Assembly: GCA_947629135.1 (NCBI GenBank)
Contig: CANRCN010000001.1
Location: 411-64,410 of the forward strand
Source: an uncultured Bacilli bacterium
GTDB lineage: Bacteria > Bacillota_I > Bacilli_A > RF39 > UBA660
Direction of reading: 5' to 3'
Length of the DNA stretch: 64,000 nt
The stretch's first letter is position 1; each line of letters begins with the position of its first letter. Both the position numbers and the translations under genes were made by a program. Under the pieces are notes generated by a model, which searched no databases, was not told the DNA's origin, and saw nothing but the letters and a program-made list of their open reading frames with translations. Of the stretch, positions 35,131 through 64,000 are shown piece by piece.

Positions 35131-36373
<1,243 letters not shown>

Positions 36374-38600: not shown

Positions 38601-38601
38601 T

Positions 38602-39993: not shown

Positions 39994-40082
39994 ATATATG
40001 AAAAATATTTTAAATTATTATTAGAATTTAATTAGAAAAAATATAAATGAAATTTATTAAAAAATAGAAAGGTATTTAAAAT

Positions 40083-41099: not shown

Positions 41100-41118
41100 G
41101 TTTTGTGTATAAGAAGGA

Positions 41119-42300: not shown

Positions 42301-42301
42301 T

Positions 42302-43015: not shown

Positions 43016-43051
43016 AAATATATACTTGAAAAAAAGGAAAGTGATTATATT

Positions 43052-44094: not shown

Positions 44095-44275
44095 AGTATC
44101 GCTTTTATCAATAGACTTTTTAATATTTTTTATAGTTATAATACTAGGAACATTTATTATTTAAATATAGAAGTATTCTTACTTATTGCAAGTTACTTTT
44201 TTTTAATATTGGATTTAATATTTTGTTTTCTATTTCATATTTTACAGCAAAATATATGTATATTTCAAATTTTAA
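44095..44275 (+). pseudogene. degenerate 5' remnant of an MBOAT gene (partial duplicate of 38602-38800)
   Basis: Nucleotide-level similarity to the start of MBOAT 38602 ('atcaatagactttttaatattttttatagtt', 'gaagtattcttacttattgcaagttacttttttt', 'tattttacagcaaaatata') with internal deletions and stops. Confidence 0.55.
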
Positions 44276-44534
44276 TTTGTCTTGTATAAAATAAAAGTTA
44301 TTTTAAGTTAATATTATGATGATTTAGAATGATGTTAAAGGAATCTTAACTTATATTTCTTAGAAATTATTAGACGTTAATAACTATAAGGATTTATTAA
44401 AAAAACTTCCAAATGATAATAAATATGATTACAGAAGTATATATTTTTTAGGTACTAATTATTGCTTTATAATAGAAAAAAATATAAGTCTTTTATATGT
44501 TCGTTATAACTGAAAAATTATGTATGTTTTTCAG

Positions 44535-44563
44535 TTTACTTTTTTTATTAGACGTGTTAGAAT
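44535..44563 (+). promoter_or_regulatory. promoter, copy 1 of a duplicated promoter
   Basis: TTTACT -17 nt- TGtTAGAAT extended -10; same 'acgtgttagaatatt' core as at 50704-50725. Confidence 0.5.
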
Positions 44564-44588
44564 ATTGTTTGGAAGGTAAGTTTGGAGT

Positions 44589-46625
44589 ATGAAAACTATA
44601 TTAAAAAAAATTGATATCAAATTAGTTATTGCAGTTATTATACATTTTTTAATAACGTTTATTACAGATAGAAATATATTTATTTTTAAAGAAATAAATA
44701 TTACTAATTATATTTTGTGTAAAGTAGTATTGTTAGGATTATTAATATTATTATGGAAGTTTATATTTAAATTAATTCATAAAGATAAGAATGCTGTTGA
44801 TTATTTTAAAAAGTTTTTAATATACATAATTCCAATTTCTATTTTATTAGTTTTGTGTTGGCCAGGTAATTGGTTTGGACCAGATGTTGCTAATTTTTAT
44901 CAATTTGCAATTCGTGGCAATTTTGTATATTATCTTAATTACTTATCATCAGTTTTTTATATTATAGGTTTAATGTTCTTTCCAGTTCCAAGTGGTCCTA
45001 TTATTCTTTTAGCTATTTTATTTGGAATTGTATTTTCTTATTTAACTAAAAATCTATATGATATTTATAAAAGTAAACTTGTTTATTTAATGTTAATTCC
45101 ATTCTTTATGTTAAATACTTTATTTTATACTTTTTATGCTAATAGACCAATTATTTTTGGAATTATTTATTTATTATTAATTAGTATTATTTTACTTGAT
45201 AAAATTAAAAATAATAAATTAACTAATAAAAAAATTTTAGCTTTAATTATTTTAACAGGAGTCGCAGCCTATTGGAGAACTGAGAGTATTTATTTAATTC
45301 TTGCTATTCCTTTATTTATTTTTATAGTCTATAAATTAAAAGTAAATTTTAAAAACATTGCTAAGATCTTTGGTTTTACTATTTTAAGTTTTCTAGCTAT
45401 ATCATTACCTCAAAAAATATATGAATATAATTTTCATGATTATCCATTATCATCACGTAATGCAGCTATATATATTTTACCTTTATCTTATATGTTAACT
45501 AAAGATTTAAAGGGGAAAAATTTAGAAAGTAATTTAGCTAAAATTGATAAAGTTATAGGAATAGAAGAAATGAAAAAATATCCATCCTATAATGATACTT
45601 ATTGTATTTGGGAAAGTAATTGTAAAAAATTAGATTATACTAAAGAAGAATATAAAGAGTTTCAAAAAGCTTATTTTGATGTAATAATTAATAATTTTCC
45701 TGAATATTTAAAAACAAGAATGTTAACATTTGTAGGTGCAAGTGGTCTTTATAATAATACTTTTACAACTAAGAATTTATATAATGAAAATATAGAGACT
45801 TTATTTGAAAGAAAAGATACTAAACCATTTATTAATTATAAAATAAGGAAAGTTGTTTATTCAATTTTAGAAGGAAGAATTTCTGATAAAGGAAGATCTA
45901 TTCTTCCATATAATCTAACTAATAATTTAATAATACCTTTGTTATTTATTGGAATATTATTTATATATTCAATTGTAAAAAAGAAGTTATTTTACTTTTT
46001 GTTATCTGGGATGTTGATTGGTCATACTACGATAGTTTTCTTTACAGCTCCTGCTAACTATGCAATGTATTATTTTAATATTTATTTAACTGGATTAGTA
46101 GTTGGAGTTATGTTTATAATTGATTATATATATTATAAAAAGAATAAAAAATGTTATTTATTAGATATAAAGAAAAAAAATAAAAAGAAAGTAAAAAGGG
46201 AGGAATCAAAGATAAAAAAATTAATAGTTCAAGCTTTTAAGTTCTTTGGAATATCTGGAATAGGATGGTTAATTGATTTTACAACTTATACAGTTATGAC
46301 AAGTTTACTAAAAATAGATATCATGATTGCTAATATTATAAGTTCATTTTTAGGAATTACTTTTGTCTATTTAGTTTCAACGAGAAAATTATTTCAGAAT
46401 AATAGTAAATATAATTTAAAAGTAAAATATATTGCTTATATTTTATATCAAGTTGTTTTTGTATTATTAGTTTCTTATATAATGACATTTTTAAAAGAAT
46501 ACTTATTAGGATTTGATGTTAAATTAATAAGTGATTATGTCAATATAATAACTAAAATTGTAGTAACTCCATTTACAATGGTAATAAATTTTATAGTTAT
46601 GAAAAATTTAATAGAGAGGATTTAA
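44589..46625 (+). CDS. large polytopic GT-C-like membrane protein (GtrC/YfhO-like by context) fused to a C-terminal GtrA-family domain
   Basis: ~14 TM helices; first 520 aa paralogous to 50747..52330 (identical blocks 'WPGNWFGPDVANFY', 'PVPSGPIILLAILFGIVFSYLTKNLYDIYKSKLVYLMLIPFFMLNTLFYTFYANRPII'); last ~140 aa have 4 TM with GtrA-like pattern; a GT2 gene follows immediately. Confidence 0.5.
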   Translation: MKTILKKIDIKLVIAVIIHFLITFITDRNIFIFKEINITNYILCKVVLLGLLILLWKFIFKLIHKDKNAVDYFKKFLIYIIPISILLVLCWPGNWFGPDVANFYQFAIRGNFVYYLNYLSSVFYIIGLMFFPVPSGPIILLAILFGIVFSYLTKNLYDIYKSKLVYLMLIPFFMLNTLFYTFYANRPIIFGIIYLLLISIILLDKIKNNKLTNKKILALIILTGVAAYWRTESIYLILAIPLFIFIVYKLKVNFKNIAKIFGFTILSFLAISLPQKIYEYNFHDYPLSSRNAAIYILPLSYMLTKDLKGKNLESNLAKIDKVIGIEEMKKYPSYNDTYCIWESNCKKLDYTKEEYKEFQKAYFDVIINNFPEYLKTRMLTFVGASGLYNNTFTTKNLYNENIETLFERKDTKPFINYKIRKVVYSILEGRISDKGRSILPYNLTNNLIIPLLFIGILFIYSIVKKKLFYFLLSGMLIGHTTIVFFTAPANYAMYYFNIYLTGLVVGVMFIIDYIYYKKNKKCYLLDIKKKNKKKVKREESKIKKLIVQAFKFFGISGIGWLIDFTTYTVMTSLLKIDIMIANIISSFLGITFVYLVSTRKLFQNNSKYNLKVKYIAYILYQVVFVLLVSYIMTFLKEYLLGFDVKLISDYVNIITKIVVTPFTMVINFIVMKNLIERI

Positions 46626-46629
46626 TTGT

Positions 46630-47439
46630 ATGGAAAAGATAATGGTTTTTATACCAATGTATAATTGTGAAAAACAAATAGTTAGAGTTTTAAAGCAATT
46701 TGATAAAGAGGTTTTAAAATATATTGAAGAAATTGTAATTATTAATAATAGAAGTACTGATAATGGAGAAGAAGCAGTTATTAATTTTAGTAAAGAAAAT
46801 AAAATAGATAAGAAACTAACTTTACTTAGAAATGATGAAAATTATAATTTAGGTGGATCTCACAAAGTAGCTTTTGATTATGCAATTAAGAATAACTATG
46901 ATTATTTAATTGTTTTACATGGTGATGATCAAGGAAGTATTCATGATTTGTTACCATATCTTAAAAATAAAGAATATGAAAATTATGATTCTTTACTTGG
47001 TTCAAGATTTTTAAAAGAATCTAAACTAGAAGGATATTCTAAGTTTAGAACTTTTGGAAACATTGTTTATAATTTTGCTTTTTCCATATTACTTGGGAAT
47101 AAAGTAAAAGATTTAGGTGCAGGATTAAATATGTATAAAGTTGAATCTTTAAAAAATAAATATTATATTAAATATCCTGATAGATTAACTTTTAATTGTT
47201 ATATGTTACTTGCTATTAAATCTTATAAACAAAATGTAAAATATTTTCCAATAACATGGAGAGAAGATGATCAAGTTTCTAATGTTAAAATGGTATCACA
47301 AGCTTTTAAAACAATAATGATACCAATTAAATATTTTTTTAGAAGAAGTAAGTATTTAGAAAGTGAGCATAGAGATAAGATAATAGAAGATTATACTGCA
47401 AGTTGTATATATAGTATTGGAGGTAAAAATGGAAAATAA
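46630..47439 (+). CDS. GT2-family glycosyltransferase, GtrB/DPM1-like without C-terminal TM helices
   Basis: 'MVFIPMYNCEKQIVRVLKQF' GT-A start, 'LHGDDQGS' DxD-type motif. Confidence 0.65.
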   Translation: MEKIMVFIPMYNCEKQIVRVLKQFDKEVLKYIEEIVIINNRSTDNGEEAVINFSKENKIDKKLTLLRNDENYNLGGSHKVAFDYAIKNNYDYLIVLHGDDQGSIHDLLPYLKNKEYENYDSLLGSRFLKESKLEGYSKFRTFGNIVYNFAFSILLGNKVKDLGAGLNMYKVESLKNKYYIKYPDRLTFNCYMLLAIKSYKQNVKYFPITWREDDQVSNVKMVSQAFKTIMIPIKYFFRRSKYLESEHRDKIIEDYTASCIYSIGGKNGK

Positions 47440-48175
47440 GGTACATTTAATCATGCCTATGGGAGGAGCAGGCTCAAGATTCTTTAAAAATGGATATGTT
47501 ATGCCTAAACCATTAATTGAAATAAATGGTAAACCATTTTTATATTGGTCAACTATGTCAATTAAAAAATATATAGATTTAGAAGATATAACTTTTGTTA
47601 TTCTTCAAGAACATATTGATAATTTTGAAATTGATAAAGTTATTTTAAAATATTTTCCTGATGCAAAATTTGTAGTATTGAAGGAAATGTTTAAAGAAGG
47701 ACCTGTATTAACTTGTAAGGCAGGACTCGAGAATATTAATGATGATCTTCCAATTATTTTTAATGATTGTGATCATTATTTTAAGAGTAGTAGTTTTAAT
47801 GATTTTTGCAATAGTGAAGATAAAAGTTTGGTTGATGGAGCTTTAGTAACTTTTGAAGCTGATGATCCTAAGTTTAGCTATGTTGAATTAGACGAAAATG
47901 GAAATGCTAAACGAACTGTTGAAAAAGAAGTTATTAGTAATGATGCGATTTGTGGAGCATATTATGTTAAAAATAAAAAAATATTCTTAGATAGTGTTTC
48001 AGAGTACATGGATAATTGTAATTACAAAGAATTTTTTGTAAGTGGTATTTATAACATTATGATAAAAAATGGTTTAACTGTAAAAAACTTTAGAGTAGAT
48101 TTTCATATTCCATTTGGAACTCCTGAAGAATATGAACTTGCTAAAGAAAAAGTAGAATTTGAGGAAATAAAATGA
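47429..48175 (+). CDS. sugar-phosphate/alcohol-phosphate nucleotidyltransferase (NTP_transferase fold, LicC/RmlA-like)
   Basis: 'LIMPMGGAGSRF...MPKPLIEINGKPFL' nucleotidyltransferase G-rich loop; GGAGG RBS 5 nt before ATG 47429. Confidence 0.6.
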   Translation: MENKVHLIMPMGGAGSRFFKNGYVMPKPLIEINGKPFLYWSTMSIKKYIDLEDITFVILQEHIDNFEIDKVILKYFPDAKFVVLKEMFKEGPVLTCKAGLENINDDLPIIFNDCDHYFKSSSFNDFCNSEDKSLVDGALVTFEADDPKFSYVELDENGNAKRTVEKEVISNDAICGAYYVKNKKIFLDSVSEYMDNCNYKEFFVSGIYNIMIKNGLTVKNFRVDFHIPFGTPEEYELAKEKVEFEEIK

Positions 48176-50061
48176 TTTACTTCACATTAATTCTTGCAAT
48201 TATCTTCATGGTAATTGGTCATTATTTTAAAGTTTATAGGTTAAAACAATTTATAGAAATTTATGAAAAGCCAAATACTCCTAGATTACTTCAAGCTTTA
48301 TCTATAAGTTATGTTATCAATTTCTTTGTTCCGTTTAGATTAGGAGACATCTTTAGAGCTTGGTGGGCTGGAAGAAAGATGAAAAATGGAGTATCATTTT
48401 CTTTGACAACGGTTATTGTTGATAGAATTTTAGATGTTATAGTAGTTGCTTTAATCTTTTTTAGTTTTTATCTATTAGGCTTTAAAGAAAAAGTAATTGA
48501 AAGTTCTATTTATTTTTATATAATAGGTGGTTCAGTTTTATTAATATTATTATTTTTAGGAATGAAATTTAGTAAATATATAAAAATATCAATTATGAAA
48601 TTTGCTAGAATATTTAATACTAATATTGAACTTAGGATATTAAAATTTACTTGGTATATTATCACAGCCTTTAAAGACTTAATATCAAAACTTAAAAAAA
48701 GCGAATTGTTAATTAATACAATTGTTATGTGGTTCTTTTATTTAGGTTCATATTCTTTATTTGCTTTAACAATGCGATTTTCAGGAAGTAATACAAGTTT
48801 AGTTGATATATTTACTTTATTATTTTCAAAGAATAGTTTTGATCTTTCAACTGGTGCTTTTTCAATTAGTAATTATTATATGGTAATTTATTTATTAGTG
48901 CCATTAGTTATTTTGTTAATTTTATCTTTATTTAAGACTAAAGAAAAAGGTAAAAATTATGTAAAAAATAAATATTTAGAGTTATTACCTCAATTAAATT
49001 CTTCAGATAAATTAGTTTTTTTAGAAGGATATTTCAGTGCTCGTTCTAGAGAATATTTTAATAATTATGTTATGTTAAATCGAGATATTTCTATTATTCA
49101 AGATTTTTCAGCAGGTAGTAATGCTACAACTATGCTTTGTACTTATGATAATAAAATGTTTTTTAGAAAATATAGTTTTGGTAAAGATTCTTCTAAATTA
49201 TATGAACAAATTAAATGGTTAAAAGAACATCAAAAAGTTATACCTTTAACTAAGGTTTTAAATGTTAAAAGAGGCAATGAATATTGTTCTTATGATATGC
49301 CATATTTTAATAATGCTATTAGTTGCTTTAACTATGTTCATTCTACACCTATTAATAAATCATGGCCAGTTCTTGAAAAGGCTCTTAATACTATAGGTGA
49401 AAATTTACATACTAAAAATTTAGTAAATGCTGATATTAAAAAAATAGATGAATATATAGAAAGTAAAGTTATAAATAATTTAAAAAAAATTGAAAATGGT
49501 AATTATATTAAACCTTTACTTAAATATAATTATTTAATTATAAATGGTAAAAAGTATCATAATTTAAATTATTTTATGAAATATTTAACAAAAGAATACT
49601 TAGAAGAGTTGTTTAAAAATGATATGTATTCTGATATTCATGGGGATTTTACAATTGAAAATATTATTTGTTTTAATGATAAAGATGATTTTTATATAAT
49701 AGATCCAAATACTGGTAATGTTCATGATTCTCCAAATCTTGATTATGCTAAGTTATTACAATCTTTACATGGTGGATATGAATTTTTAATGAATACAAAA
49801 AGTGTTTCAGTTTCTGAAAATAATATTAATTATTTATTTACTAAATCAGCTGTATATGATGAATTGTATAATAAATATCATAAGTATTTATGTGATAAGT
49901 TTGATAGAATAAAAGTAAAAAGTATTTATTTTCATGAAATTATTCATTGGTTAAGGTTATTACCTTATAAAATAGAAAAAAATGGTGAAAGACAAGTATT
50001 ATTTTATGCAGGACTTATTATAGTATTAAATGATGTAATAGAAATGTTTGGTGATGATTAA
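48172..50061 (+). CDS. fusion protein: N-terminal flippase-like (LPG-synthase-TM/UPF0104) membrane domain + C-terminal choline/aminoglycoside-kinase-fold (APH/ChoK) kinase
   Basis: N-terminus 'RLGDIFRAWWAGRK' with ~8 TM; C-terminus 'DIHGDFTIENIICFNDKDDFYIIDPN' matches the H-G-D-x-x-x-x-N ... D-x-N catalytic/Mg loops of ChoK/APH kinases. Confidence 0.55.
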   Translation: MIYFTLILAIIFMVIGHYFKVYRLKQFIEIYEKPNTPRLLQALSISYVINFFVPFRLGDIFRAWWAGRKMKNGVSFSLTTVIVDRILDVIVVALIFFSFYLLGFKEKVIESSIYFYIIGGSVLLILLFLGMKFSKYIKISIMKFARIFNTNIELRILKFTWYIITAFKDLISKLKKSELLINTIVMWFFYLGSYSLFALTMRFSGSNTSLVDIFTLLFSKNSFDLSTGAFSISNYYMVIYLLVPLVILLILSLFKTKEKGKNYVKNKYLELLPQLNSSDKLVFLEGYFSARSREYFNNYVMLNRDISIIQDFSAGSNATTMLCTYDNKMFFRKYSFGKDSSKLYEQIKWLKEHQKVIPLTKVLNVKRGNEYCSYDMPYFNNAISCFNYVHSTPINKSWPVLEKALNTIGENLHTKNLVNADIKKIDEYIESKVINNLKKIENGNYIKPLLKYNYLIINGKKYHNLNYFMKYLTKEYLEELFKNDMYSDIHGDFTIENIICFNDKDDFYIIDPNTGNVHDSPNLDYAKLLQSLHGGYEFLMNTKSVSVSENNINYLFTKSAVYDELYNKYHKYLCDKFDRIKVKSIYFHEIIHWLRLLPYKIEKNGERQVLFYAGLIIVLNDVIEMFGDD

Positions 50062-50615
50062 TGAAAAAATTAGCAATGATTGATTTAGATGGAACTTTGT
50101 TTGATACTAACGAAGTAAATTATTATGCTTATAAAGAATCTTTAAATGAAAAAGGATTTGATCTTGAGTATGAACATTATAAAAATGAATGTAATGGTAG
50201 ATATTATAAAGTATTTTTACCTGATATAGTTAATAATGATGAAGAGGTTATGGAATATGTTCATAAAAGAAAAAAAGAATTATATGAAAAATATTTGGAT
50301 AAGGCTATTGTAAATGAACATTTATTTAATATTTTAGAAAGTATAAAAGATAAATACTATTTAGCTTTAGTTACAACAGCTTCTAAAAAGAATACTTATG
50401 ATATTTTAAAATATTTTAAAAAAGTTGAATTATTTGATTTAATTTTAACTCATGATGATATTGAAAAGCCAAAGCCAGATCCTGAAGGATTCAAAAAAGC
50501 TTTAGATTATTTTAAGATTGATGCTAAAGATGCAATCGTTTTTGAAGATTCTAATGTTGGAATAGAAGCAGCTAAGAAAGTTGGAGCTACAATTTTTAAA
50601 ATAGAAAATTTTTAG
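50061..50615 (+). CDS. HAD-IA hydrolase (beta-phosphoglucomutase/phosphatase-like)
   Basis: 'MIDLDGTLFDT' HAD motif I and 'FEDSNVGIEAAKKVG' motif IV. Confidence 0.7.
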   Translation: MKKLAMIDLDGTLFDTNEVNYYAYKESLNEKGFDLEYEHYKNECNGRYYKVFLPDIVNNDEEVMEYVHKRKKELYEKYLDKAIVNEHLFNILESIKDKYYLALVTTASKKNTYDILKYFKKVELFDLILTHDDIEKPKPDPEGFKKALDYFKIDAKDAIVFEDSNVGIEAAKKVGATIFKIENF

Positions 50616-50694
50616 AAATAGATATTAGAAAGATATAAAAATTAACAATGTTCTTTTTTAGAATTTGTTAATTTTTTTATTTAAAAAAGATTAG

Positions 50695-50723
50695 TTTACA
50701 ATTTCTTTTATACGTGTTAGAAT
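50695..50723 (+). promoter_or_regulatory. promoter, copy 2 of the duplicated promoter
   Basis: TTTACA -17 nt- TGtTAGAAT; identical core to the copy at 44558. Confidence 0.5.
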
Positions 50724-50746
50724 ATTACTAGAAGGGTAAGGTAGAA

Positions 50747-52330
50747 ATGAAAAAAAAATTAAAAAAAATTAATTTTAAATTGATAATTATTGTTTTAATA
50801 CATTTTGTAATAACATTTTTTACAGATAAAAATATATTTGTTTTTTCTGATATAAATATTATTAATTATATTTTTTGTAAAATTATATTTTTATTAGTTT
50901 TATATTTATTTTGGAAATTTATCTTTAAATTAATAGACAAAGATAAAGTAATGATTAGTTATTTTAAAAAGTTTTTAATATATATGATACCTATTAGTAT
51001 ATTATTAATTTTATGTTGGCCAGGTAATTGGTTTGGGCCAGATGTTGCTAATTTTTATGAATATGCAATTCATGGTAATTTCTTATATTATCTTAATTAT
51101 TTATCATCAGTTTTTTATATGATAGGTTTTATGTTTTTTCCAGTTCCAAGTGGACCTATTATTCTTTTAGCTATTTTATTTGGAATTGTATTTTCTTATT
51201 TAACTAAAAATCTATATGATATTTATAAAAGTAAACTTGTTTATTTAATGTTAATTCCATTCTTTATGTTAAATACCTTATTTTATACTTTTTATGCTAA
51301 TAGACCAATTATATATGGAGTTTTTTACTTGCTATTAATTAGTATTATTTTACTTGATAAAATTAGAAATAACAAATTAACAAATAAAAAATTTCTTGTA
51401 TTAATGATTTTAACAGGAATATCTTCCTATTTTAGAAGTGAAAGTATTTATTTAATTCTTGCTATTCCTTTATTTATTTTTATAGTTTATAAATTAAAAG
51501 TAAATGTTAAAAACATTGCTAAGATATTTGGATTTACAGTTTTAGCTTTTTTAATAGTTGCAATGCCTCAAAAGATATATGAATATAAAAATGTTGAAGA
51601 TCAATATACTCGTAATTTACCAATATATATTACACCTTTATCTTATATGTTAACTAAGGATTTAAAAGGTAAAAATTTAGAAAGTGATTTAGCTAAAATC
51701 GATAAAGTTATTGGAATAGAGGAGATGAAAGAATATCCATCTTATATAGATGCTTTTTGTGTTTGGAATAATGATTGTTTAAAGACAGGCTATACTAAGG
51801 AAGAATATAAGGAGTTTCAAAAAGCTTATTTTGATGTAATAAAAAATAATATACCAGAATTTATAATGACTAAAACTTTAACTTTTGCTAATGCAAGTGG
51901 GGTTTATGGAAGTACTTTTACAACTAAAAATTTATATAATGAAGATAATCAAATGTTATATAAGAGAAAAGATACTAAACCTTTTATAAATTATAAAGTA
52001 AGAAGATTTACATATTCACTTCTTGAAGGAAGATTAACTGATAAATGGCAACCTAATATTTTATATAGAATTTTTAATAATTTATTTGTATCATTCTTAA
52101 TCATTGGAATAATATTTATATATTCAATTATTAAAAAGAAATTATTTTACTTTTTATTATGTGGAATGTTAATTGGACATGCTGTTATAGTTTTCTTTAC
52201 AGCACCAGCTAGTTATTTTATGTATTATTTTAATGTTTATTTATGTGGGTTAGTTCTTGGAGTAATATTTGTAATAGATTATATATATTATAAAAAACAT
52301 AAAAAAAGTTATGTTTTAAAGAACAAGTAG
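50747..52330 (+). CDS. GT-C-like polytopic membrane protein, paralogue of 44589 without the GtrA fusion
   Basis: 527 aa, long identical blocks with the 44589 product. Confidence 0.5.
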   Translation: MKKKLKKINFKLIIIVLIHFVITFFTDKNIFVFSDINIINYIFCKIIFLLVLYLFWKFIFKLIDKDKVMISYFKKFLIYMIPISILLILCWPGNWFGPDVANFYEYAIHGNFLYYLNYLSSVFYMIGFMFFPVPSGPIILLAILFGIVFSYLTKNLYDIYKSKLVYLMLIPFFMLNTLFYTFYANRPIIYGVFYLLLISIILLDKIRNNKLTNKKFLVLMILTGISSYFRSESIYLILAIPLFIFIVYKLKVNVKNIAKIFGFTVLAFLIVAMPQKIYEYKNVEDQYTRNLPIYITPLSYMLTKDLKGKNLESDLAKIDKVIGIEEMKEYPSYIDAFCVWNNDCLKTGYTKEEYKEFQKAYFDVIKNNIPEFIMTKTLTFANASGVYGSTFTTKNLYNEDNQMLYKRKDTKPFINYKVRRFTYSLLEGRLTDKWQPNILYRIFNNLFVSFLIIGIIFIYSIIKKKLFYFLLCGMLIGHAVIVFFTAPASYFMYYFNVYLCGLVLGVIFVIDYIYYKKHKKSYVLKNK

Positions 52331-52357
52331 TTATAATTGAAGTTAAGGTGAGTTTGT

Positions 52358-53338
52358 ATGAAAGAAGTAAAAAAAGAATATAAAGGTATAGACATAATGA
52401 AATTTTTATTAGCTATAGTTATTATAATTTATCATACTCGTTTATATACTGGTAATAATCATACTTTAAAAACGATTTATGATCTTTTGTTAAGTTCTGC
52501 TGTTCCTTTATTTTTTATAACAAGTGGATTTTTTGTATATGATAAATATAAACAAGAAGAAAGGATAACTAAGTTATTAAAGAAAAATATTAAATTATAT
52601 CTCATTTGGAATCTTATTTATCTTCCAATTGCTATATATGGAGATGTTATTAATAATTATTCAGTTGGAAAATCAATTTTGTTATATATACGTGAATTTT
52701 TATTCTTAGGAGAACATTATTTTAGTTGTCAAATTTGGTATTTATTGTCATTTATATATTCTTTAATAATATTATTGGTGTTAAAAAAATTAAAATTAAA
52801 TGATATAAAAATATTTATAATAACTATTTTAATATATGTTTTTGCAACGGTGATGGTATATTTAACTTCTAATAATTTTGATTATAAATTTGTTAAATTA
52901 TTTAGTAGTATTTTTTCAACAGGAAAAGTATTTTTAGGACCAGCTATAGTTACACTTGGAATGTTTATTAATAAGTATAAAGATAAGATAAAAATATCTA
53001 AAATTGTATTATTATTAATGATTGTTTTATGTACTGTTGTATCAATTATATTTCCAAATAAAATAAGTAGAATAATGCTTTATATATTTGTATTCTTGTT
53101 AGTTATGAATTTGAATAATATTAAATTTAATACTGTTAATTTTAGAAAGTGTAGCATTATATTTTATTTTATTCATATGATTAATTTGTTTATTTATATG
53201 TTAATAGTTGGTATAAATAATACATATGGAATATATAGTTTTATATTTACACTTATTACTTGCATAATAGAATCAGTTATTATAATAGCAATTCAAAATA
53301 AATGGAATCCTAAAGTGTTAAAAGAAATATTTAGTTGA
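52358..53338 (+). CDS. acyltransferase-3 family membrane O-acyltransferase, paralogue of 40083 lacking the poly-G N-terminal extension
   Basis: 'KGIDIMKFLLAIVIIIYHT' motif; near-identical C-terminus ('NIKFNTVNFRKCSIIFYFIHMINLFIYMLIVGINNTYG'). Confidence 0.6.
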   Translation: MKEVKKEYKGIDIMKFLLAIVIIIYHTRLYTGNNHTLKTIYDLLLSSAVPLFFITSGFFVYDKYKQEERITKLLKKNIKLYLIWNLIYLPIAIYGDVINNYSVGKSILLYIREFLFLGEHYFSCQIWYLLSFIYSLIILLVLKKLKLNDIKIFIITILIYVFATVMVYLTSNNFDYKFVKLFSSIFSTGKVFLGPAIVTLGMFINKYKDKIKISKIVLLLMIVLCTVVSIIFPNKISRIMLYIFVFLLVMNLNNIKFNTVNFRKCSIIFYFIHMINLFIYMLIVGINNTYGIYSFIFTLITCIIESVIIIAIQNKWNPKVLKEIFS

Positions 53339-57235: not shown

Positions 57236-57667
57236 ATGAATAGATTGATAGCTCATGGTTTAATAAAAATAAATGGTAAGTATTTATTGATTAAAAGAAC
57301 TAAAGAAAAAAGAGAAAAAGCTAATTTGTTACCTGATTATTGGGATATACCAGGTGGAATGGTAGAATTAGGGGAGTTACCAAGGGAGGCTGTTGTTAGA
57401 GAAACCAAAGAGGAAGTTAACTTGGATATTGAAGTTAAAGATATTTTGCATGAAGATAGTAATTATGATAAAGAAAAGGATATTGTATTTACTAGATTAG
57501 TATATTGGTGTGAATTATTGGATAGCGAAGATGCTTCTAATATTGTTTTACAAGAAGATGAGCATAGTGAATATAGACTTGTTAATGATTTAGAAGAAAT
57601 GAAAAATGAAAAAATAGTAGATTATTTAATTGATACTATTAGAAATTTAAATAAAAAATATAAGTAA
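57236..57667 (+). CDS. Nudix hydrolase
   Basis: Nudix box 'PGGMVELGELPREAVVRETKEEVNL'. Confidence 0.7.
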   Translation: MNRLIAHGLIKINGKYLLIKRTKEKREKANLLPDYWDIPGGMVELGELPREAVVRETKEEVNLDIEVKDILHEDSNYDKEKDIVFTRLVYWCELLDSEDASNIVLQEDEHSEYRLVNDLEEMKNEKIVDYLIDTIRNLNKKYK

Positions 57668-57710
57668 CCAAATTTGGGTAAATACATAGATTAAAGTAGG
57701 GTGAATATGA

Positions 57711-57992
57711 ATGAATAATAATGGATATCGTATAGTTGTAGATGCAGGACATGGAGGAAGCGATCCTGGTGCTGTATCAGGTGGCTTACGAGAAAAAGAT
57801 TTTACTTTACAAGCAGCTAATTATATGTATAATAGATTTAAAGAACTTGGTGTTCCTGTTGCAATTACAAGAGATGATGATACTACTTTAACTAGAGCTG
57901 AAAGATTATCTACTATGACAGATACTTTTGGAAATGATTCTAAAGTTATAGTTTTATCTAATCACATAAATGCAGGAGGTCGGGATGCATAA
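57711..57992 (+). pseudogene. 5' fragment (93 codons) of an N-acetylmuramoyl-L-alanine amidase (Amidase_3, CwlD-like); the rest of the gene is absent here
   Basis: 'IVVDAGHGGSDPGAVSG...EKDFTL' and 'LSNHINAGG' match the first two zinc-ligand regions of Amidase_3, which are normally followed by ~130 more residues; the ORF stops right after HINAGG and unrelated AT-rich DNA follows. Confidence 0.55.
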
Positions 57993-58078
57993 TATGTGAT
58001 TAAATTACTTTGATAAGCTCCTATTTTACTGTTCCATCTGGAAAAATTAATGTAAAAATGCTAAAATTTTAGTAGGAG

Positions 58079-58300
58079 TTGTTAACTATGAAAATCAAAT
58101 GTAAGAAGTGTAATGATATAATAGAAAATAAAGAATTCAATAAAGAAGCCTGGTGTTCTTGTAAAAATGTGGGATTATTTAATGACTACATTCTTTATGG
58201 AAAAAATAATAAGTTAAAAAAAGATAGTTATATTGATTTAACACCTAAAAAATCTATAGAAGAAGTAATTGAACAAATAAATAATTTAGAAAACAAATAA
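58079..58300 (+). CDS. small zinc-ribbon protein (CxxC...CxC)
   Basis: 73-aa ORF 'KCKKCNDII...WCSCKN'; followed by a terminator. Confidence 0.3.
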   Translation: MLTMKIKCKKCNDIIENKEFNKEAWCSCKNVGLFNDYILYGKNNKLKKDSYIDLTPKKSIEEVIEQINNLENK

Positions 58301-58303
58301 ACT

Positions 58304-58328
58304 GAATTGTGGAAACACAATTTTTTTA
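58304..58328 (+). terminator. Rho-independent terminator
   Basis: stem 'aattgtg'/'cacaatt', GAAA loop, T7. Confidence 0.45.
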
Positions 58329-58647
58329 TGCAAATGAAATGATAAAAATATGAAATAATAATATAAAAATAAAAATTACATTTTAATGAGGTGATTAACT
58401 TTTAAATGTAAAGGATTATTTAAAAGTAGAAGAAAAGAAAAAATAAGCTATCTTATAAATAAAGACTATTTAAGTAGTTTAGATTATATTTTACAAATTT
58501 AAAATAATTTAATAATAAAATACAAAATAGCGAAGATAAGTTATATAAAATTTAAAGAATTATTAATTAAATAATCGAGTTTTTTAGATAATTATGGTAT
58601 AATATGATAAAAATTAAATTAATTTTTAAAATTTTTGAGGTAGTTTT

Positions 58648-58856
58648 ATGAAAAATGAGATTAATATGACAAAAGATGAATTAATAAAAAAGATATTAAG
58701 ATATGATTTAACAGATGATGAAAAAAAAAGCTTTTGATAAAATTGTAGCATCATTTGATGAAATTTATGATTTAGATAGTGATGAATCTAAAACAAAGAT
58801 TTCTAGATCTATTGCTATATATATGATATATAAGGAAAAAGTGTATAAGTAGGTAT
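58648..58856 (+). pseudogene. ~69-codon small ORF interrupted by an A9 homopolymer (frameshift)
   Basis: TGgTATAAT extended -10 at 58595-58603, GAGG RBS, ATG 58648; frame stops at 58735-58737 after A9 (58721-58729); the -1 frame continues to TAG at 58854-58856. Confidence 0.25.
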
Positions 58857-59101
58857 GTGAAAATGTAAACATATATGAGTATTTAATACTTTAAAGTCGT
58901 TCTTGAGATAAAAAATAATGAATGATAAATTATTAGTTAGAATAGCAAAGAGTTAATTAATGAAAATTAAACTTTAAATATCTAAAAAATAGGAGATGCA
59001 ATTTGTTATAATTATTTTCTTGTAAAAATAGTTGAAGCTAGTGATAAATTTATAAGAAGTAAATTTAAAATATTAAAATAATTAGAAGGAGTGATGATAA
59101 A

Positions 59102-60835
59102 TTGGCTACAAAATTTGAAAGAATTTACAATGATATTAAAATCGAATTAAAAGAGATTAAGGATAATAACAAATATAATAATATTTCTCAAGCATATGGT
59201 CATTTTATTTTAAAAATGCTATTTGATTTAACTGATGAAGAAGCATACGATTGCTGCACGGATGGTTCTAATGATAATGGTATAGATGCAATATATATTG
59301 AGCCAGATAAAAGAGTACACTTTTTTCAATTTAAATTTCCAGAAACTGAGAAAAATATCTCGAAAGGTGTATCAGAAGATGAAATATTAAAATTGTGTCA
59401 TGGTGTTCAATCGTTTGTTTCACCAGAAGAAATTTTTAATGAAAATATTTGGAATGATTTATTGAAAGATAAAAGGCAGGAATTTTTAGCTGCTGATTTA
59501 TGTGATATAAAATTGTGGATAGTAAGGTATTCTAATCAGGAAATTAGTAATTCAGCGGAATCTATTATTAATAATTATATGATCGGATACAAAAGAGAGA
59601 CTGGTAATAAAATCGATAAAGAAATTTTTTTAGCAATGGAATGCTTGAATTTATATGAATCAAGAGCTAAAAACATTTGGCCTGATTTTACATTGCCTTA
59701 TGTAAAATCTTTGACTCCATTTAATGATGAAAAAACTAGTATTGCGAGTGCATATGTTTCTTTAAATAGCATATACAATACATTTAGTAAAATTCAAAAT
59801 ACAGTGTTTGAAGGAAATGTAAGATTTTTAAATCCAAATTCTAAAATAAACGATGGAATTAGGGAAACTATATTAAATGTACCTGAGAACTTCCATTTGT
59901 TAAATAATGGAATAACTATTGTATGTAATGAATGTTTAGATATAAATGCAAAATCATATTATAATGTTAAGTGTGGCTCAATTATTAATGGAGCCCAAAC
60001 TGTCGGAACTATAATAAATACTTTATCATCATTAACTGAAGAACAAAGATGTGTATATGAGAAATCTTTTGTATTTGTTAAAATTGTTTCTTTTAATAAA
60101 GATACTAAATTAATAAATGACATGGTATATACTTTAAATACCCAAAATCAAATGAAAAATTCTTATACTTTAGCTAATGATATGATAGTAAAAAATTTAC
60201 AAACAAAAATAAATAAGGAAACTCCTTATTTTCTTGAAGTTAAAAATAACGAATATAATTATTGTAAAAGTAGTTATAAATCGTTTGATAAACTATCTAA
60301 AAACAAAATTGATATTGAAACATTTATTCAAGTTTATACTACATTTTATAATATAAATGATATGGCAGCATTATCTAAAAATAATAAAGCAATTTTATTT
60401 ATGAATGAAAACATACAAAAAATTATTAATGAATTAAAATATGAAGAATCTTTATTATCCTATAAAGTATATGTGCAATTAATGAATATAATAAAAGAAT
60501 ATAGGGCTTATAGAAAAAAATCAGAGAAAATTGAAATATTAAATATTTTAGATATAGATGAAAATGATATAGATGAATATAGATATTTAAATACTGGCAA
60601 TTTTATCATATTATATGCTTTGGGAATAATTTATTGTGAAAAGGGATTAGATCCAGAAAAGAATATGATTCCTGTTATTAAAGCTTTAAGATTATTATTT
60701 AAAAAAGAAAAAAATATTTCTAATGCAACAAGAATAAAAGAAACCTTTGATAGAGTTGAACGTTTTGTTAAAAAATTTAAAATAGATAATGATATTATAG
60801 TTGTGCCAACAAAAGTGGTACTATCGAAATTATAG
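59102..60835 (+). CDS. AIPR-family abortive infection (phage resistance) protein
   Basis: 577 aa; AIPR hallmark 'SIINGAQTVGTIIN' (I-N-G-a-Q-T) mid-protein and N-terminal nuclease-like region with 'DGSNDNGIDAIYIE'. Confidence 0.6.
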   Translation: MATKFERIYNDIKIELKEIKDNNKYNNISQAYGHFILKMLFDLTDEEAYDCCTDGSNDNGIDAIYIEPDKRVHFFQFKFPETEKNISKGVSEDEILKLCHGVQSFVSPEEIFNENIWNDLLKDKRQEFLAADLCDIKLWIVRYSNQEISNSAESIINNYMIGYKRETGNKIDKEIFLAMECLNLYESRAKNIWPDFTLPYVKSLTPFNDEKTSIASAYVSLNSIYNTFSKIQNTVFEGNVRFLNPNSKINDGIRETILNVPENFHLLNNGITIVCNECLDINAKSYYNVKCGSIINGAQTVGTIINTLSSLTEEQRCVYEKSFVFVKIVSFNKDTKLINDMVYTLNTQNQMKNSYTLANDMIVKNLQTKINKETPYFLEVKNNEYNYCKSSYKSFDKLSKNKIDIETFIQVYTTFYNINDMAALSKNNKAILFMNENIQKIINELKYEESLLSYKVYVQLMNIIKEYRAYRKKSEKIEILNILDIDENDIDEYRYLNTGNFIILYALGIIYCEKGLDPEKNMIPVIKALRLLFKKEKNISNATRIKETFDRVERFVKKFKIDNDIIVVPTKVVLSKL

Positions 60836-60867
60836 TTTAGTAAAAAATTATAAATAAGTGTTTGAAA

Positions 60868-60890
60868 GGGAATAAAAATTCTCTTTTTTT
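60868..60890 (+). terminator. possible Rho-independent terminator after the AIPR gene
   Basis: stem 'gggaat'/'attctc' (one G-U), AAAA loop, T7. Confidence 0.35.
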
Positions 60891-61169
60891 ATACTTTTTA
60901 GAAAAAATTTAAACCATTAAGATAGTTTTTAAATGGTATTAGAGCTATTACCTAACAAGAAAATGAGTAGTCTTTTAATCAAATATAAACATAAAATTTA
61001 TGGAGGTGAATTTTAAAAAATGAATATAAAAGAAACTTTCGATAATGATAAAAATTTGGTTGATTTGATAGAAGAATATTTAAAAATAATGCTATTTAAA
61101 GAGAGAGACTCCTAGTTATGAATTATAGTGAATATACTTGTGAAGTTATGCATTTAAAAGGAGTTGTAA

Positions 61170-62756
61170 GTGTATAGCAATATAATACAATCGCCAAATT
61201 TTTATAGAGTAGGTTTATATATAAGATTATCAGAAAGTGATGAAGGTAAGTCTTATGAATCAGAAAGTGAAAGTATTATTAATCAAAGAAATTTATTAAT
61301 GAGTTTTGTAAAGCAAAATGAATTTACCTTTGTTGATGAGTATATTGATGATGGATTTACTGGTACTAATTTTGATAGACCTGGCTTTAAAAGATTACTT
61401 GAAGATATTGAAAACGGAAGAATAAATTGTGTCATAACAAAGGATTTATCTAGACTTGGTAGAAATTATGTTACTTGTGGTTATTATGTAGATGAATATT
61501 TTCTTCTAAAAAAAGTTAGATATATTGCTGTACTTGATCAAGTAGATACTTTTTTAAATAATGTTGGTAACGAAATGATACCTTTTAAATCAGTATTTAA
61601 TGATATGACAAGTAGAGATAATTCTAAAAAGATACGTTCTATTTTAAGAAATAAAAAAGAGGATGGAAAATTTATTGGAAGTGAACCTAGCTTTGGTTAT
61701 ATGCGAGATCCAGAAGATAAAGGACATTTATTACCAAATCCCGAAACTGCTTTTATTGTTAAAAAAATATTTGAAATGGCAAATAGTGGTATAAGTGTTA
61801 GTGATATTGCAAGTTATCTTAATGATTGTAAATATCCAACACCAAGTTTATACAAAAAGAAAGAAGGCTCAAAGCAAAAAATTAATCCAATATGGACTGT
61901 TTCATCAGTAAAAAAAATACTAAGAAATCAAATGTATACAGGTGATATGGTACAAAATGTCCAAACTAAAATATCATACAAATCTCAAAAGAAAGTTGCT
62001 CTTAATAAAGAAGCATGGATAATTGTTCCAGATACTCATGAACCATTAGTTAGTAAAGAAATATTTAATAAAGTTCAAAGTAATGTTAAAAGAAAGCAGA
62101 AAACACAAACTGATAGAGAAAAAAGATTATTTGAAAATCTTATTTATTGTCAGGAATGTGGTAATACTTTAACAGTTACTTACCGAAAAAATCATGATTA
62201 TTGGACTGTTAATTGTAATAGATATTCAAGAGATCCAAGAAGACATTTATGTTATCCTCATTTTATGCCTTATGATAAATTAGAAGAAGCACTATTAAGT
62301 ACTATTAAAAGTACTTGTAAGAAATATTTGGATGAGATTGATGTTAAATCGTTAGCACAGCTTATAAATGATAAAAACATTTCTAAAGAAAGTTCAACAG
62401 AAGAAATTAATTTTTTAAATAAAAAAATTAAAGAATACAATACTAAAATTGATATGCTATATGATGATAAATTTAAAGGTAATATTTCGGAAGATACTTA
62501 TAAAAGATTATCAAGAGAAACAGAAATATTATTAAATCAATCTAAATCTAGAATAGAAGAATTACAAAAAGTAGATAAAAAGAAAAAAGAATCTACAAAG
62601 GAAGTGCAAAACTATGAAGAAAAGATTAAGAAATTAATAAATCTTGATAATCCAAGTAGAGAATTATTACAATCCATTATTGACAAGATAGTAATTGATA
62701 AAGATAGAAACATTGAAATTTTATATAAATTTAGTTTATTAAATGACTTTGATTAA
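61170..62756 (+). CDS. large serine recombinase (resolvase/invertase catalytic domain + recombinase domain + zinc ribbon + coiled coil)
   Basis: N-terminal 'RVGLYIRLSESDEG' with the catalytic Ser, 'DLSRLGRN' motif, zinc-ribbon 'CQECGNT...C..C', long C-terminal coiled coil; AAAGGAG RBS 6 nt before GTG 61170. Confidence 0.85.
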   Translation: MYSNIIQSPNFYRVGLYIRLSESDEGKSYESESESIINQRNLLMSFVKQNEFTFVDEYIDDGFTGTNFDRPGFKRLLEDIENGRINCVITKDLSRLGRNYVTCGYYVDEYFLLKKVRYIAVLDQVDTFLNNVGNEMIPFKSVFNDMTSRDNSKKIRSILRNKKEDGKFIGSEPSFGYMRDPEDKGHLLPNPETAFIVKKIFEMANSGISVSDIASYLNDCKYPTPSLYKKKEGSKQKINPIWTVSSVKKILRNQMYTGDMVQNVQTKISYKSQKKVALNKEAWIIVPDTHEPLVSKEIFNKVQSNVKRKQKTQTDREKRLFENLIYCQECGNTLTVTYRKNHDYWTVNCNRYSRDPRRHLCYPHFMPYDKLEEALLSTIKSTCKKYLDEIDVKSLAQLINDKNISKESSTEEINFLNKKIKEYNTKIDMLYDDKFKGNISEDTYKRLSRETEILLNQSKSRIEELQKVDKKKKESTKEVQNYEEKIKKLINLDNPSRELLQSIIDKIVIDKDRNIEILYKFSLLNDFD

Positions 62757-62758
62757 TA

Positions 62759-63016
62759 GAAGTTAGTTTATACTAACTTCGTACATATAGAGGCGAAATA
62801 CAAAGAATTATGTGCAAAATTTTATAAATAACTTCTGTTCAACTTGGGGAGAAGTTAATATTAAAAAACATATTATTGTTATATTTAATTAAAGTTTAAC
62901 TTCGTGACAGGCTGGCACGAAGTTAAAAAAAATATATTTTAAAATTTAGTACATTATAATAATGGTGTAATAATTTTTAAAAATCAAAAGTTATTACGCT
63001 TAATCGTAATAACTTT
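62759..63016. repeat. cluster of four palindromes sharing AAGTT/AACTT outer arms immediately 3' of the recombinase gene
   Basis: IR1 62759-62780 'gaagttagt-ttat-actaacttc'; IR2 62841-62856 'aactt-ggggag-aagtt'; IR3 62886-62916 'ttaacttcgtg-acaggctgg-cacgaagttaa'; IR4 62987-63016 'aaagttattacg-cttaat-cgtaataacttt'. Confidence 0.5.
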
Positions 63017-63060
63017 ACAAAAATATGAAAATGATATATAATGTAATCAGAGGTGATTTA

Positions 63061-64000
63061 TATGCTTTTAAGAGAAGATTACTTATCTAAAATAAGAGGA
63101 TTTTATGATTCAGATTTAATTAAAATATTAGTAGGTATAAGAAGATGTGGAAAATCAGTTATTTTAAATCAAATAATAGAAGAATTAAAAGAAAAAAGGA
63201 AAATAGATGAAGAGCATATAATATTTATTAATTTTGAATTTATTGAATTTGAAGAATTATTAGATTATAAAAAATTAAATAAATATATAAAAGATAAAAT
63301 TAAAGATGATAAGATTTATTATTTGTTTTTGGATGAAATTCAGAATGTAGATAATTTTGAAAAAGTTGTTAATTCTTTGCGTGCTCAGATAAAAAATATA
63401 AGTATATTTTTGACTGGATCTAATAGTAAAATGTTATCAGATGAGTTATCATCAGTTTTATCTGGTAGATATGTTTTATTTAATATAAATCCTCTATCTT
63501 ATAAAGAATATGTGTCTTTAACCAAAAAAGATGGAAAGGACTTAAATACTTTTTGGGATTATGCTAAATGGGGAGGACTTCCAAATAGATGTGAATTTAC
63601 AAATGAAATAGATATTAAAAATTATCTTCATAGTGTATATGATTCTATTATTTTAAGAGATGTTGTAAAAAGATTAAATTTAAAGGATACTATTCTTTTT
63701 GATATTATTTTACAATATTTGATTGAAACCGCCGGTCGTGAATTTTCTGCTGATAATATTATAAAATATTTAGATAAAGAAAATAAGAAAATATCTAATG
63801 AAACACTTTACAATTATATAGATGCTTTGTGTAAGGCATTAATACTTAAAAAGGTGTATAGATATGATATTGCTGGTAAAAGTGTATTAAAAACATTAAA
63901 TAAGTATTATGCAACTGATTTAGGAATTGCTCAAATTAAAAATAATAATCCTGAATTTAAAAGTTATGTTGTTTTAGAAAATATTGTTTATAATGAATTA
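63061..64000 (+). CDS. AAA/DUF4143-type ATPase (P-loop NTPase), 3' end outside window
   Basis: Open frame from ATG 63061 to the window edge; Walker A 'GIRRCGKS', Walker B 'LFLDEIQ'; AGAGGTGA RBS; TATATAAT -10 upstream. Confidence 0.55.

Follow-up and report, generated by a model that had tools for sequence, protein, structure and literature searches.

The stretch analyzed here (64,000 nt of contig CANRCN010000001.1 from an uncultured Bacilli bacterium; hereafter, the window) is very AT-rich (~22% GC) and ends inside an integrative element that interrupts the coding frame of a cell-wall amidase gene of the Amidase_3 family. The features of this locus were delineated by open reading frame (ORF) calling and a Pfam profile search, with domain matches well above the curated thresholds, and by reading the sequence for shorter signals. 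They are the following, in order along the forward strand (here and below, L numbers denote related loci):

57667-57693, +: sigma-K-type promoter motif upstream of the amidase gene (AC at 57667-57668, a 16-nt spacer and CATAGATTA at 57685-57693)
57698-57703, +: ribosome-binding site (RBS) of the amidase gene, AGGGTG (sequence reading)
57711-57992, +: amiN, the 5' half of the split amidase gene (93 aa; Pfam Amidase_3, profile positions 1-78 of 174, E 3.6e-17)
57975-58009, +: attL of the window (core GGAGGT at 57975-57980, with the shared GG probably at 57978-57979, then a non-canonical P'-type arm, TCGGGATGCATAATATGTGATTAAATTACT)
58088-58300, +: small zinc-ribbon protein, DUF7695, cargo (Pfam E 4.7e-7)
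58649-58852, +: small ORF broken by a frameshift at an A9 run (sequence reading)
59102-60835, +: AIPR/AbiU-like abortive-infection gene, predicted defense cargo (577 aa; Pfam AIPR 5.7e-28; PADLOC AbiU 1.3e-22)
60990-60998, +: -10-like element of the 31-aa ORF, CATAAAATT, followed by the RBS GGAGGTG at 61002-61008 (sequence reading)
61020-61115, +: 31-aa ORF, candidate recombination directionality factor (RDF) or recombinase partner (positional conservation)
61157-64000, +: recombinase-ATPase module (blastn, 91-92% DNA identity to L002-L009)
61170-62756, +: large serine recombinase (LSR; 528 aa, GTG start; Pfam Resolvase, Recombinase and Zn_ribbon_recom, each exceeding its Pfam cut-off)
63062-64000, +: AAA_14/DUF4143 ATPase, cut by the window end (AAA_14 8e-34, DUF4143 1.5e-6; 408 aa in relatives)

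The amiN product ends with ...LSNHINAGG-RDA, where the host-derived sequence extends up to ~57979 and the final four codons (RDA and the stop) are element DNA. In agreement with the original prediction, which was made from the letters of the window and placed the end of the gene after the zinc-ligand region, the fragment stops just past HINAGG and lacks the catalytic Glu region of the Amidase_3 domain. The AT-rich DNA that was said to follow it is indeed lower in GC, but the dip is modest (16-20% versus ~22-28% for the genome background). The zinc-ribbon ORF and the A9-disrupted ORF lie where they had been placed; the product of the former has weak homologues within several related elements, and the two pieces of the latter (58649-58735 and 58715-58852) would form a single ORF save for the frameshift at the A9 run in GATGATGAAAAAAAAAGC, near 58721-58729.

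The membership of the next gene in the AIPR family, which had been assigned by an I-N-G-a-Q-T motif, is borne out by the Pfam match (98.9 bits, the cut-off being 25, over profile positions 1-296 of 308) and by the presence of IINGAQT in the protein; the PADLOC AbiU match spans positions 10-515 of 537. The predicted serine integrase contains the three domains characteristic of LSRs, namely Resolvase (2.2e-20, residues 16-167, with the motif YIRLSESD of the catalytic domain), Recombinase (4.2e-24) and Zn_ribbon_recom (2.6e-10, with CQEC...NCN...HLC), followed by a C-terminal coiled coil recognized by eye only. Its second-best match in NCBIfam is XisF, at 105.7 bits, below the cut-off of that family. 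The P-loop ATPase that was described as running off the window ends at residue 312 in the available copy; its full-length homologue in L005, with ~91% DNA identity to the part within the window, matches PADLOC PDC-S01 at 6.1e-138 over positions 10-409 of 412, PDC-S01 being a candidate single-gene defense system only. These PADLOC matches of the AIPR protein and of the ATPase relative agree with the abortive-infection defense cargo originally proposed. Exact-sequence look-ups with the recombinase, AIPR and amiN proteins returned no match, and only the DUF7695 protein was found, on a 1.7-kb contig.

The split amidase gene in related loci

A recombinase-based scan of one genome per species (GTDB representatives) yielded 80 loci with 44-94% recombinase identity, all from uncultured gut Bacilli that bear the labels Bacilli, Erysipelotrichaceae, Tenericutes or Mollicutes. 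A link to RF39 can be made for two of the host bins, including Candidatus Faecisoma (L015): RF39 contains a CAG-433 family, and Candidatus Faecisoma has been placed in RF39/CAG-822 (PMC8035907). The two halves of the amidase gene were located in these loci by tblastn. Of the 80 loci, 34 have the N-terminal half (amiN) upstream of the recombinase gene and in the same orientation, and 60 have the C-terminal half (amiC) 0.1-7 kb downstream of it, likewise on the same strand. The amiC halves read GG-EGAEVVY..., followed by the rest of the catalytic domain and then by 3-6 LysM repeats. Both ends are visible in 28 loci, where the element length ranges from 4.2 to 14.4 kb.

Joining the two halves in silico in eight loci produced seven intact proteins of 410-516 aa (L007 failed for technical reasons), all with an Amidase_3 domain and LysM repeats and without a signal peptide. 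The joined host sides, AAT GCA GGA GGT GGT GAA GGT GCN GAA, encode NAGGGEGAE, and the joined junction deduced from the att sites, HINAGGGEGAEV, is identical to the uninterrupted alleles present in L058, L091 and L092; the expected attB junction is AATGCAGGAGGTGGTGAAGGTGC. Thus, the comparison with insertion-free alleles that had been suggested as a check on the original prediction yields exactly the junction expected, and the missing 3' half is found in the relatives downstream of a homologous LSR, as an element integrated in the amidase gene implies.

The same pattern emerges outside the recombinase-based sample. The 93-aa amiN protein was queried against a database of 5.8 billion proteins, and the best 120 matches were inspected. 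These are 71-93% identical to the query and nearly all 87-140 aa long; at least 100 of them depart from amidase homology directly after HINAGG, with ~15-20 unrelated types of tails that represent element arms, and only two continue with GEGAEV.... An independent metagenome contig, L001, is 99.9% identical to the window over 1.7 kb spanning the amidase junction and has the same A9 run. Because L001 carries the same junction, the truncation is not an assembly artifact, a possibility that had been raised as a potential refutation and that is contradicted also by analogous junctions in 34 other species.

The window contains the left 6 kb of a ~7.7-kb integrative element with defense cargo that is neither a phage nor a plasmid, inserted in frame at the Gly codons of HINAGGGEGAE in a gene for a signal-peptide-less Amidase_3-LysM cell-wall amidase. 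This element belongs to a large radiation on a single codon in uncultured gut Bacilli, at least some of which are RF39.

Both halves of the gene are under purifying selection. Stop codons are absent from all 35 amiN and 60 amiC halves, and the ratio of nonsynonymous to synonymous substitutions (dN/dS) for amiN is 0.078 for the window and L016 and 0.089 for the window and L077; the estimates were restricted to such closest pairs, given that saturation of AT-rich third positions raises the ratio for distant ones. In Amidase_3 enzymes, the N-terminal half contributes the zinc ligands and the C-terminal half the catalytic Glu, so that neither half can work alone. Given that both halves are under selection and that the active-site residues are divided between them, the gene appears to be reassembled at some point.

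Several individual loci deserve separate mention. In L058 (2014-2050 and 13775-13885), a canonical element (TnpV ... recombinase) is edged only by ~20-bp remnants of the amidase target and lies ~90 bp upstream of an intact amidase paralogue with its own CATAtacTA promoter motif, which looks like a decayed or relocated target site beside a replacement gene. In L091 (1239-1975), a metagenome scaffold, attB is uninterrupted and the ORF departs from amidase homology after ...KRKYYQRVL, with tRNA-like sequence at the end of the contig; either this is a second insertion site in the same gene or the scaffold is chimeric. A JetD_C (Wadjet) gene is located directly upstream of the split amidase gene in one metagenome contig (L089, 187-1386), so defense genes also gather at this locus outside the element. 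Finally, the left flank of L093 (1-9871), whose amiN is 93% identical to that of the window, includes VirB4-like and VirD4/TraG-like genes of type IV secretion or conjugation, with an FtsW/RodA/SpoVE-family gene immediately upstream of the amidase gene.

Attachment sites, the small ORF and the cargo

Alignment of the junctions gave the att sites of the commonest class as ...AATCACATAAATGCAGGAGGT/GGCGATGGTCAAAGTGTAAC for attL and GTTACAYWTTGACYATCRCCAGGTGG/YGAAGGTGCNGAAGT... for attR. The element side in these relatives consists of a P arm, GTTACAYWTTGACYATCRCC, the core AGGTGG and a P' arm, GGCGATGGTCAAAGTGTAAC, such that the arms form imperfect inverted repeats flanking the shared core, which is the architecture of a serine-integrase attP. 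Two further arm classes, TAACCACTAGAGCC... and TGCAGTAATC..GGGAGGGC..., accompany recombinase clades with 48% identity at the same host position, and overall the arm sequence co-varies with the recombinase clade. In the window, attL alone is visible. Its left arm coincides with the canonical P' consensus at 14 of 26 positions, compared with a null mean of 7.7, a level reached by 0.5% of element positions, and no canonical P' arm above chance was detected anywhere in the window. Junctions resembling this arm are present in metagenome contigs L089 and L090.

The short ORF immediately upstream of the recombinase gene had been noticed as possibly encoding an RDF-like protein; its presence is confirmed, with coordinates one base off from those initially given (61021-61116), and its candidacy gains from the comparison of loci. 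Relatives with 94%, 88% and 57-60% identical recombinases have an ORF of 30-31 aa, MFNI(K/T)ETFK..., that ends ~80 nt before the recombinase start, and the classes with 44-52% identity have ORFs of 25-40 aa at the same place that share the core [FL]x[DE][LI][IV]xx[YF][LI]. Thus, nearly every class, to a recombinase identity as low as 46%, has a homologous small ORF in front of the recombinase; none was listed for L081 (44% identity), and a few short contigs are further exceptions. In 61 of 74 loci, the sequence CATA-N3-T[AT], followed by an RBS and an ATG, is found ~200 nt before the recombinase gene, whereas 0.014 such composites are expected per 300 nt. A candidate -35 element, ATATT-N14, fits some classes (e.g., L005 and L016) and neither the window nor other classes, and was rejected, so that only the -10-like element is claimed.

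Small excision factors with mother-cell promoters are known to be the point of control in three systems: SprB of SPbeta (58 aa, sigma-E/K promoter; PMC5499854), CD1234 of skinCd, under sigma-E and SpoIIID (PMC5025042), and GirX of gin (42 aa; PMC5595907). By analogy with these, the strongest candidate for a directionality factor in the amidase elements is the small ORF.

The cargo of the family, as predicted from protein similarity, is anti-phage defense. According to PADLOC and Pfam, L005 carries Gabija (GajA/GajB), a type II restriction-modification pair and DUF4238-Pers; L058 encodes Ppl-like and PDC-S02 proteins; L089 encodes a HEC-01-like ATPase; and AbiEi, Fic and Bro-N proteins are found in other elements. 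The AIPR gene of the window is independent cargo: a metagenome scan with this protein produced seven loci with 70-77% identical homologues, none of which adjoins an amidase or recombinase gene, and did not bring the right end to light. In addition to the cargo, the relatives share genes for HTH_36 (58 loci), TnpV (28 loci; Pfam 1.7e-36) and a 99-aa protein (26 loci); the conserved gene set includes no relaxase. Upstream of the HTH_36 gene, ~40 loci have a non-coding block of ~130 nt (~9150-9280 in L005) that is highly conserved within classes and contains the palindrome AAAAGTGCACTTTT. The window lacks this block, which may function as an origin, an oriT or an operator.

An origin from a prophage or a plasmid was considered and rejected. 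The recombinase has no relatives in IMG/VR, and the closest phage recombinases are at most 34% identical. Searches of plasmid and phage DNA returned matches of 145-270 nt, at the domain level only, with tndX (150 nt) as the sole hit of the recombinase among plasmid DNA. Given the lack of close relatives in these viral, phage and plasmid searches, the elements are not prophages or known plasmids. Nevertheless, they move horizontally, because the loci that share the recombinase-ATPase module with the window at 91-92% DNA identity (L002-L009) are only ~76% identical in their host amidase DNA and because the recombinase class is incongruent with amidase similarity (94% recombinase and 46% amiN identity in L002; 60% and 84%, respectively, in L077).

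The copy in the window is a mosaic, judging from sequence comparison, with the left arm, cargo and small ORF derived from one lineage and the recombinase and ATPase from another. DNA homology to the relatives with 94% identical recombinases starts abruptly at 61157 (blastn), 13 nt before the recombinase start; none of the 80 loci matches, at the DNA level, the left 3.2 kb, which encompass the DUF7695 gene, the frameshifted ORF and the AIPR gene; and the small ORF shares only ~50% identity with the usual partner of this recombinase. A 36-nt direct repeat with 75% identity links the C-terminus of the AIPR gene (60734-60769, IKETFDRVERFV) with the start of the small ORF (61026-61061, IKETFDNDKNLV); it may be due to chance or may be a relic of the recombination from which the mosaic arose.

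The right end was originally predicted to lie, together with the 3' part of the amidase gene, beyond position 64000. For the window this is not seen directly, but it is well founded from L005, the closest relative examined in detail, in which the amidase 3' half (GG-EGAEVVY..., then LysM repeats) begins ~2.94 kb after the recombinase stop and the gene order is ATPase (408 aa), DUF4238 gene and attR/amiC. From this layout, the right boundary in the window genome is predicted near 65.7 kb, for an element of ~7.7 kb, and there we would expect, after the end of the ATPase gene at ~64290 and possibly a DUF4238 gene, a P arm similar to GTTACAYWTTGACYATCRCCAGGTGG fused to GAAGGTGCNGAAGT... and LysM repeats.

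Scenarios of excision and sporulation-type promoters

The motif AC-N16-17-CATA-N3-TA is the consensus of sigma-K promoters in Bacillus subtilis, with the CATA core present also in sigma-E promoters. CATA-N3-TA precedes the amiN RBS by a few bases in 32 of 35 species, within otherwise unalignable intergenic DNA, and the full motif is found upstream of amiN in 23 of the 35; the respective frequencies for 1152 other ORFs from these loci are 3.4% and 1.5%. On the strength of this consensus, which is borrowed from B. subtilis, the amidase promoter appears to be of the sigma-K/E type. The flanks of the locus vary between species, with the exception of a SleB/CwlJ-type Hydrolase_2 gene (Pfam 1.1e-15), which is the sole repeated neighbor of the amidase gene (24 loci) and is preceded by the same motif in 11 of the 24. 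Within NCBIfam, no equivalog cut-off was reached by the recombinase, the reconstituted amidase (70.9 bits against 221.6 for spore_cwlD) or the neighboring hydrolase (45.4 bits against 236.5 for spore_SleB), so that the latter two are family-level relatives only. The lack of a signal peptide in the amidase and its LysM repeats also speak for a link to sporulation. Spore formation in RF39 has been predicted from gene content (PMC10868615).

Taking these observations into account, it seems fairly probable that the family consists of skin- or gin-like intervening elements that are excised in the sporulating mother cell. Under this scenario, the amidase gene would be transcribed late in sporulation, in the mother cell, from a sigma-K/E-type promoter. 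To vegetatively growing cells, the split would be harmless, making the site a free parking place for defense cassettes. During sporulation, a CATA-N3-T promoter of their own would drive the small ORF and the recombinase in the mother cell, the small protein would direct the recombinase toward excision, and attL and attR would be recombined, so that the element would leave as a circle and the amidase ORF would be restored and expressed, while the forespore genome would retain the element. The broader proposition is that, in uncultured gut Bacilli (RF39 and relatives), at least 15 diverged LSR/attP lineages, each with a micro-protein of 25-40 aa, share a nearly always occupied slot at a single codon of a late-sporulation amidase gene, ferry interchangeable anti-phage defense systems and are excised in the mother cell, so that only this disposable cell bears the cost of the insertion. 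It strikes us as evenly poised.

Several observations weigh against developmental excision, either in the family or in the window copy. Because classical sporulation genes are present neither in the window nor in the flanks of the examined loci, the link to sporulation is circumstantial; tblastn with SpoIIID, SpoVT and SspA (approximate queries) against 1.47 Mb of loci found no match, which is uninformative for so small a sample. Sporulation of RF39 is a genomic prediction only, the order of the window's host is itself deduced, and the promoter assignment leans on a consensus from B. subtilis. A consistent -35 element was not detected upstream of the small ORF, either in the window or across the loci, and its role as an excision factor is that of a sequence-based candidate. 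Horizontal movement requires excision or transfer outside the terminal mother cell. With respect to the window, attR and amiC are outside the 64,000 nt; the left arm differs from those of the ten closest elements with a visible left junction (recombinases 88-94% identical); and the TnpV, 99-aa protein and HTH_36 genes are all absent, such that this copy may be locked in. The non-canonical left arm and the lack of TnpV and HTH_36, similarly to the large one-codon family and the sporulation-type promoter motif, were not part of the original prediction.

Accordingly, the window copy could be a degenerate, locked-in mosaic, in which the cognate left arm and the accessory genes were replaced through a deletion or recombination and the amidase gene is permanently split. 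In addition to the missing canonical P' arm and accessory genes, this is what the abrupt start of homology at 61157, the left 3.2 kb foreign to all 80 loci, the diverged small ORF and the failure to find a -35 element before it would suggest. We nevertheless consider this outcome rather unlikely, given that the arm resembles the canonical half-site better than 99.5% of the element positions and has counterparts in L089 and L090, that the recombinase and the small ORF are intact, and that amiN is intact as well and identical in the independent sample L001.

For the family as a whole, the alternative to developmental excision is purely selfish integration into a safe harbor: the elements would be site-specific defense islands whose excision serves transfer, with the amidase dispensable or restored intermittently. 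The horizontal movement documented above, in particular the discordance between recombinase class and amidase similarity in L002 and L077, the competition of many arm lineages for a single site, cargo typical of defense islands and the possession of TnpV in common with Tn4451-type mobilizable transposons all fit this explanation. An inactivated gene should decay, however, and instead there are no stops among the amiN and amiC halves and dN/dS is ~0.08; moreover, the sporulation-type motif is kept before the amidase gene, and so is CATA-N3-T[AT] before the small ORF and the recombinase. Selfish integration as the sole explanation is therefore doubtful, and it is, besides, compatible with excision in the mother cell, as SPbeta does both.

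A vegetative on/off switch, or 'active lysogeny', in which reversible excision would control an autolysin unconnected to sporulation, has a precedent in the comK-integrated Listeria prophages, and contigs with an uninterrupted attB do exist in metagenomes (L091, L092). It is nonetheless quite improbable, given that an amidase without a signal peptide cannot reach the wall of a living cell unaided, that the promoter motif is not of the sigma-A type and also precedes the SleB/CwlJ-like gene, and that LSRs are strongly directional (PMC3783163). Finally, the right end is not seen in the window, and an Amidase_3-LysM protein without a signal peptide would also fit a phage endolysin, but the notion that there is no real split, only a short paralogue, an endolysin remnant of a prophage or an assembly artifact, can hardly be entertained in view of the junction shared with L001, the matching 3' halves in 60 species (which contradict the short paralogue raised as a caveat at the outset), the housekeeping rather than phage genes in the flanks (NUDIX, ABC-F, dnaE) and a fragment that covers only profile positions 1-78 of 174, without the catalytic Glu region.

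Elsewhere in the window, two features of a capsule/exopolysaccharide locus were noted. An (AT)19 repeat at 35477-35514, where two overlapping ORFs meet (35131-36373; ...IYIYIYIY...), is a candidate slipped-strand phase-variation switch. In the polysaccharide locus at 37641-53338, three pairs of paralogues, all diverged (44589-46625 and 50747-52330; 40083-41099 and 52358-53338; 37641-38600 and 43171-44094), suggest a duplicated cassette.

Comparison with known elements and implications

In its anatomy, the family matches the intervening elements in sporulation genes, which include skin in sigK, SPbeta in spsM, vfbin, vrin and gin in gerE (PMC4191935, PMC5595907). A full-text literature search turned up neither an amidase as the target of such an element nor any such element in RF39, although this absence is not proof. 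As in skin (SpoIVCA in B. subtilis; CD1231 and the RDF CD1234 in Clostridioides difficile), where a late mother-cell coding frame is interrupted by an element with its own LSR and is restored by precise excision, limited in C. difficile to the mother cell by a small RDF under sigma-E/SpoIIID (PMC5025042), the amidase elements would restore an ORF. In contrast to skin, the interrupted gene encodes a cell-wall amidase instead of a sigma factor, the element carries defense genes and does not resemble a prophage, the site is used by many recombinase/att lineages, and excision is deduced from sequence. The gin element of Bacillus cereus is similar in composition, as it is not a phage either and encodes an LSR (GirC) along with the tiny partner GirX (42 aa) that is needed for excision, both expressed in mid-sporulation (PMC5595907); it differs in host clade and target gene, whereas the amidase elements carry anti-phage defense cargo and their small ORFs, of 25-40 aa, are unrelated in sequence to GirX as far as tested. 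SPbeta (SprA/SprB, the latter a 58-aa RDF with a sigma-E/K promoter) likewise combines a mobile element with a developmental switch (PMC4191935, PMC5499854); unlike this active 134-kb phage, however, the amidase elements are 4-14 kb in size, without virion genes and without relatives in viral collections.

Outside of sporulation, the Tn4451/Tn5397 transposons (TnpX/TndX and TnpV) share the LSR and, with relatives of the window element, TnpV. These transposons, which carry a Mob gene and resistance cargo, are not strict in their choice of target. The amidase family does not conform to this type, given that TnpV is encoded in 28 related loci but not in the window and that the target is a single codon. 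The fdxN element of Anabaena (XisF) is also an LSR element excised developmentally in a terminally differentiated cell, but in cyanobacterial heterocysts, with another target and with the accessory proteins XisH and XisI. Integrative defense islands resemble the family in their swappable defense systems (AbiU/AIPR, PDC-S01, Gabija, restriction-modification and others), whereas the amidase elements reside inside a coding frame under purifying selection, with sporulation-type promoter motifs. What is unusual compared to known intervening elements is the combination of one codon that is near-universally occupied by many recombinase/att lineages, defense cargo and a conserved micro-ORF partner.

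If excision in the mother cell is true, it would represent the first described case of a developmental DNA rearrangement in the lineage of RF39 and relatives, and it would extend programmed, recombinase-mediated gene reconstitution, known from skin, SPbeta and gin, to a reduced-genome, uncultured gut lineage. The split amidase gene would then provide a PCR-testable marker of a working sporulation program where sporulation is only predicted. It would also link defense islands with sporulation, given that a gene needed only in a dying cell is an ideal cost-free integration site. Diverged recombinases that act on the same 40-bp attB with different attP arms and tiny candidate directionality factors offer a comparative series for the study of att recognition, of relevance to genome engineering, and, if the scenario holds, would amount to a natural library of recombinases with one common attB and different attP sites.

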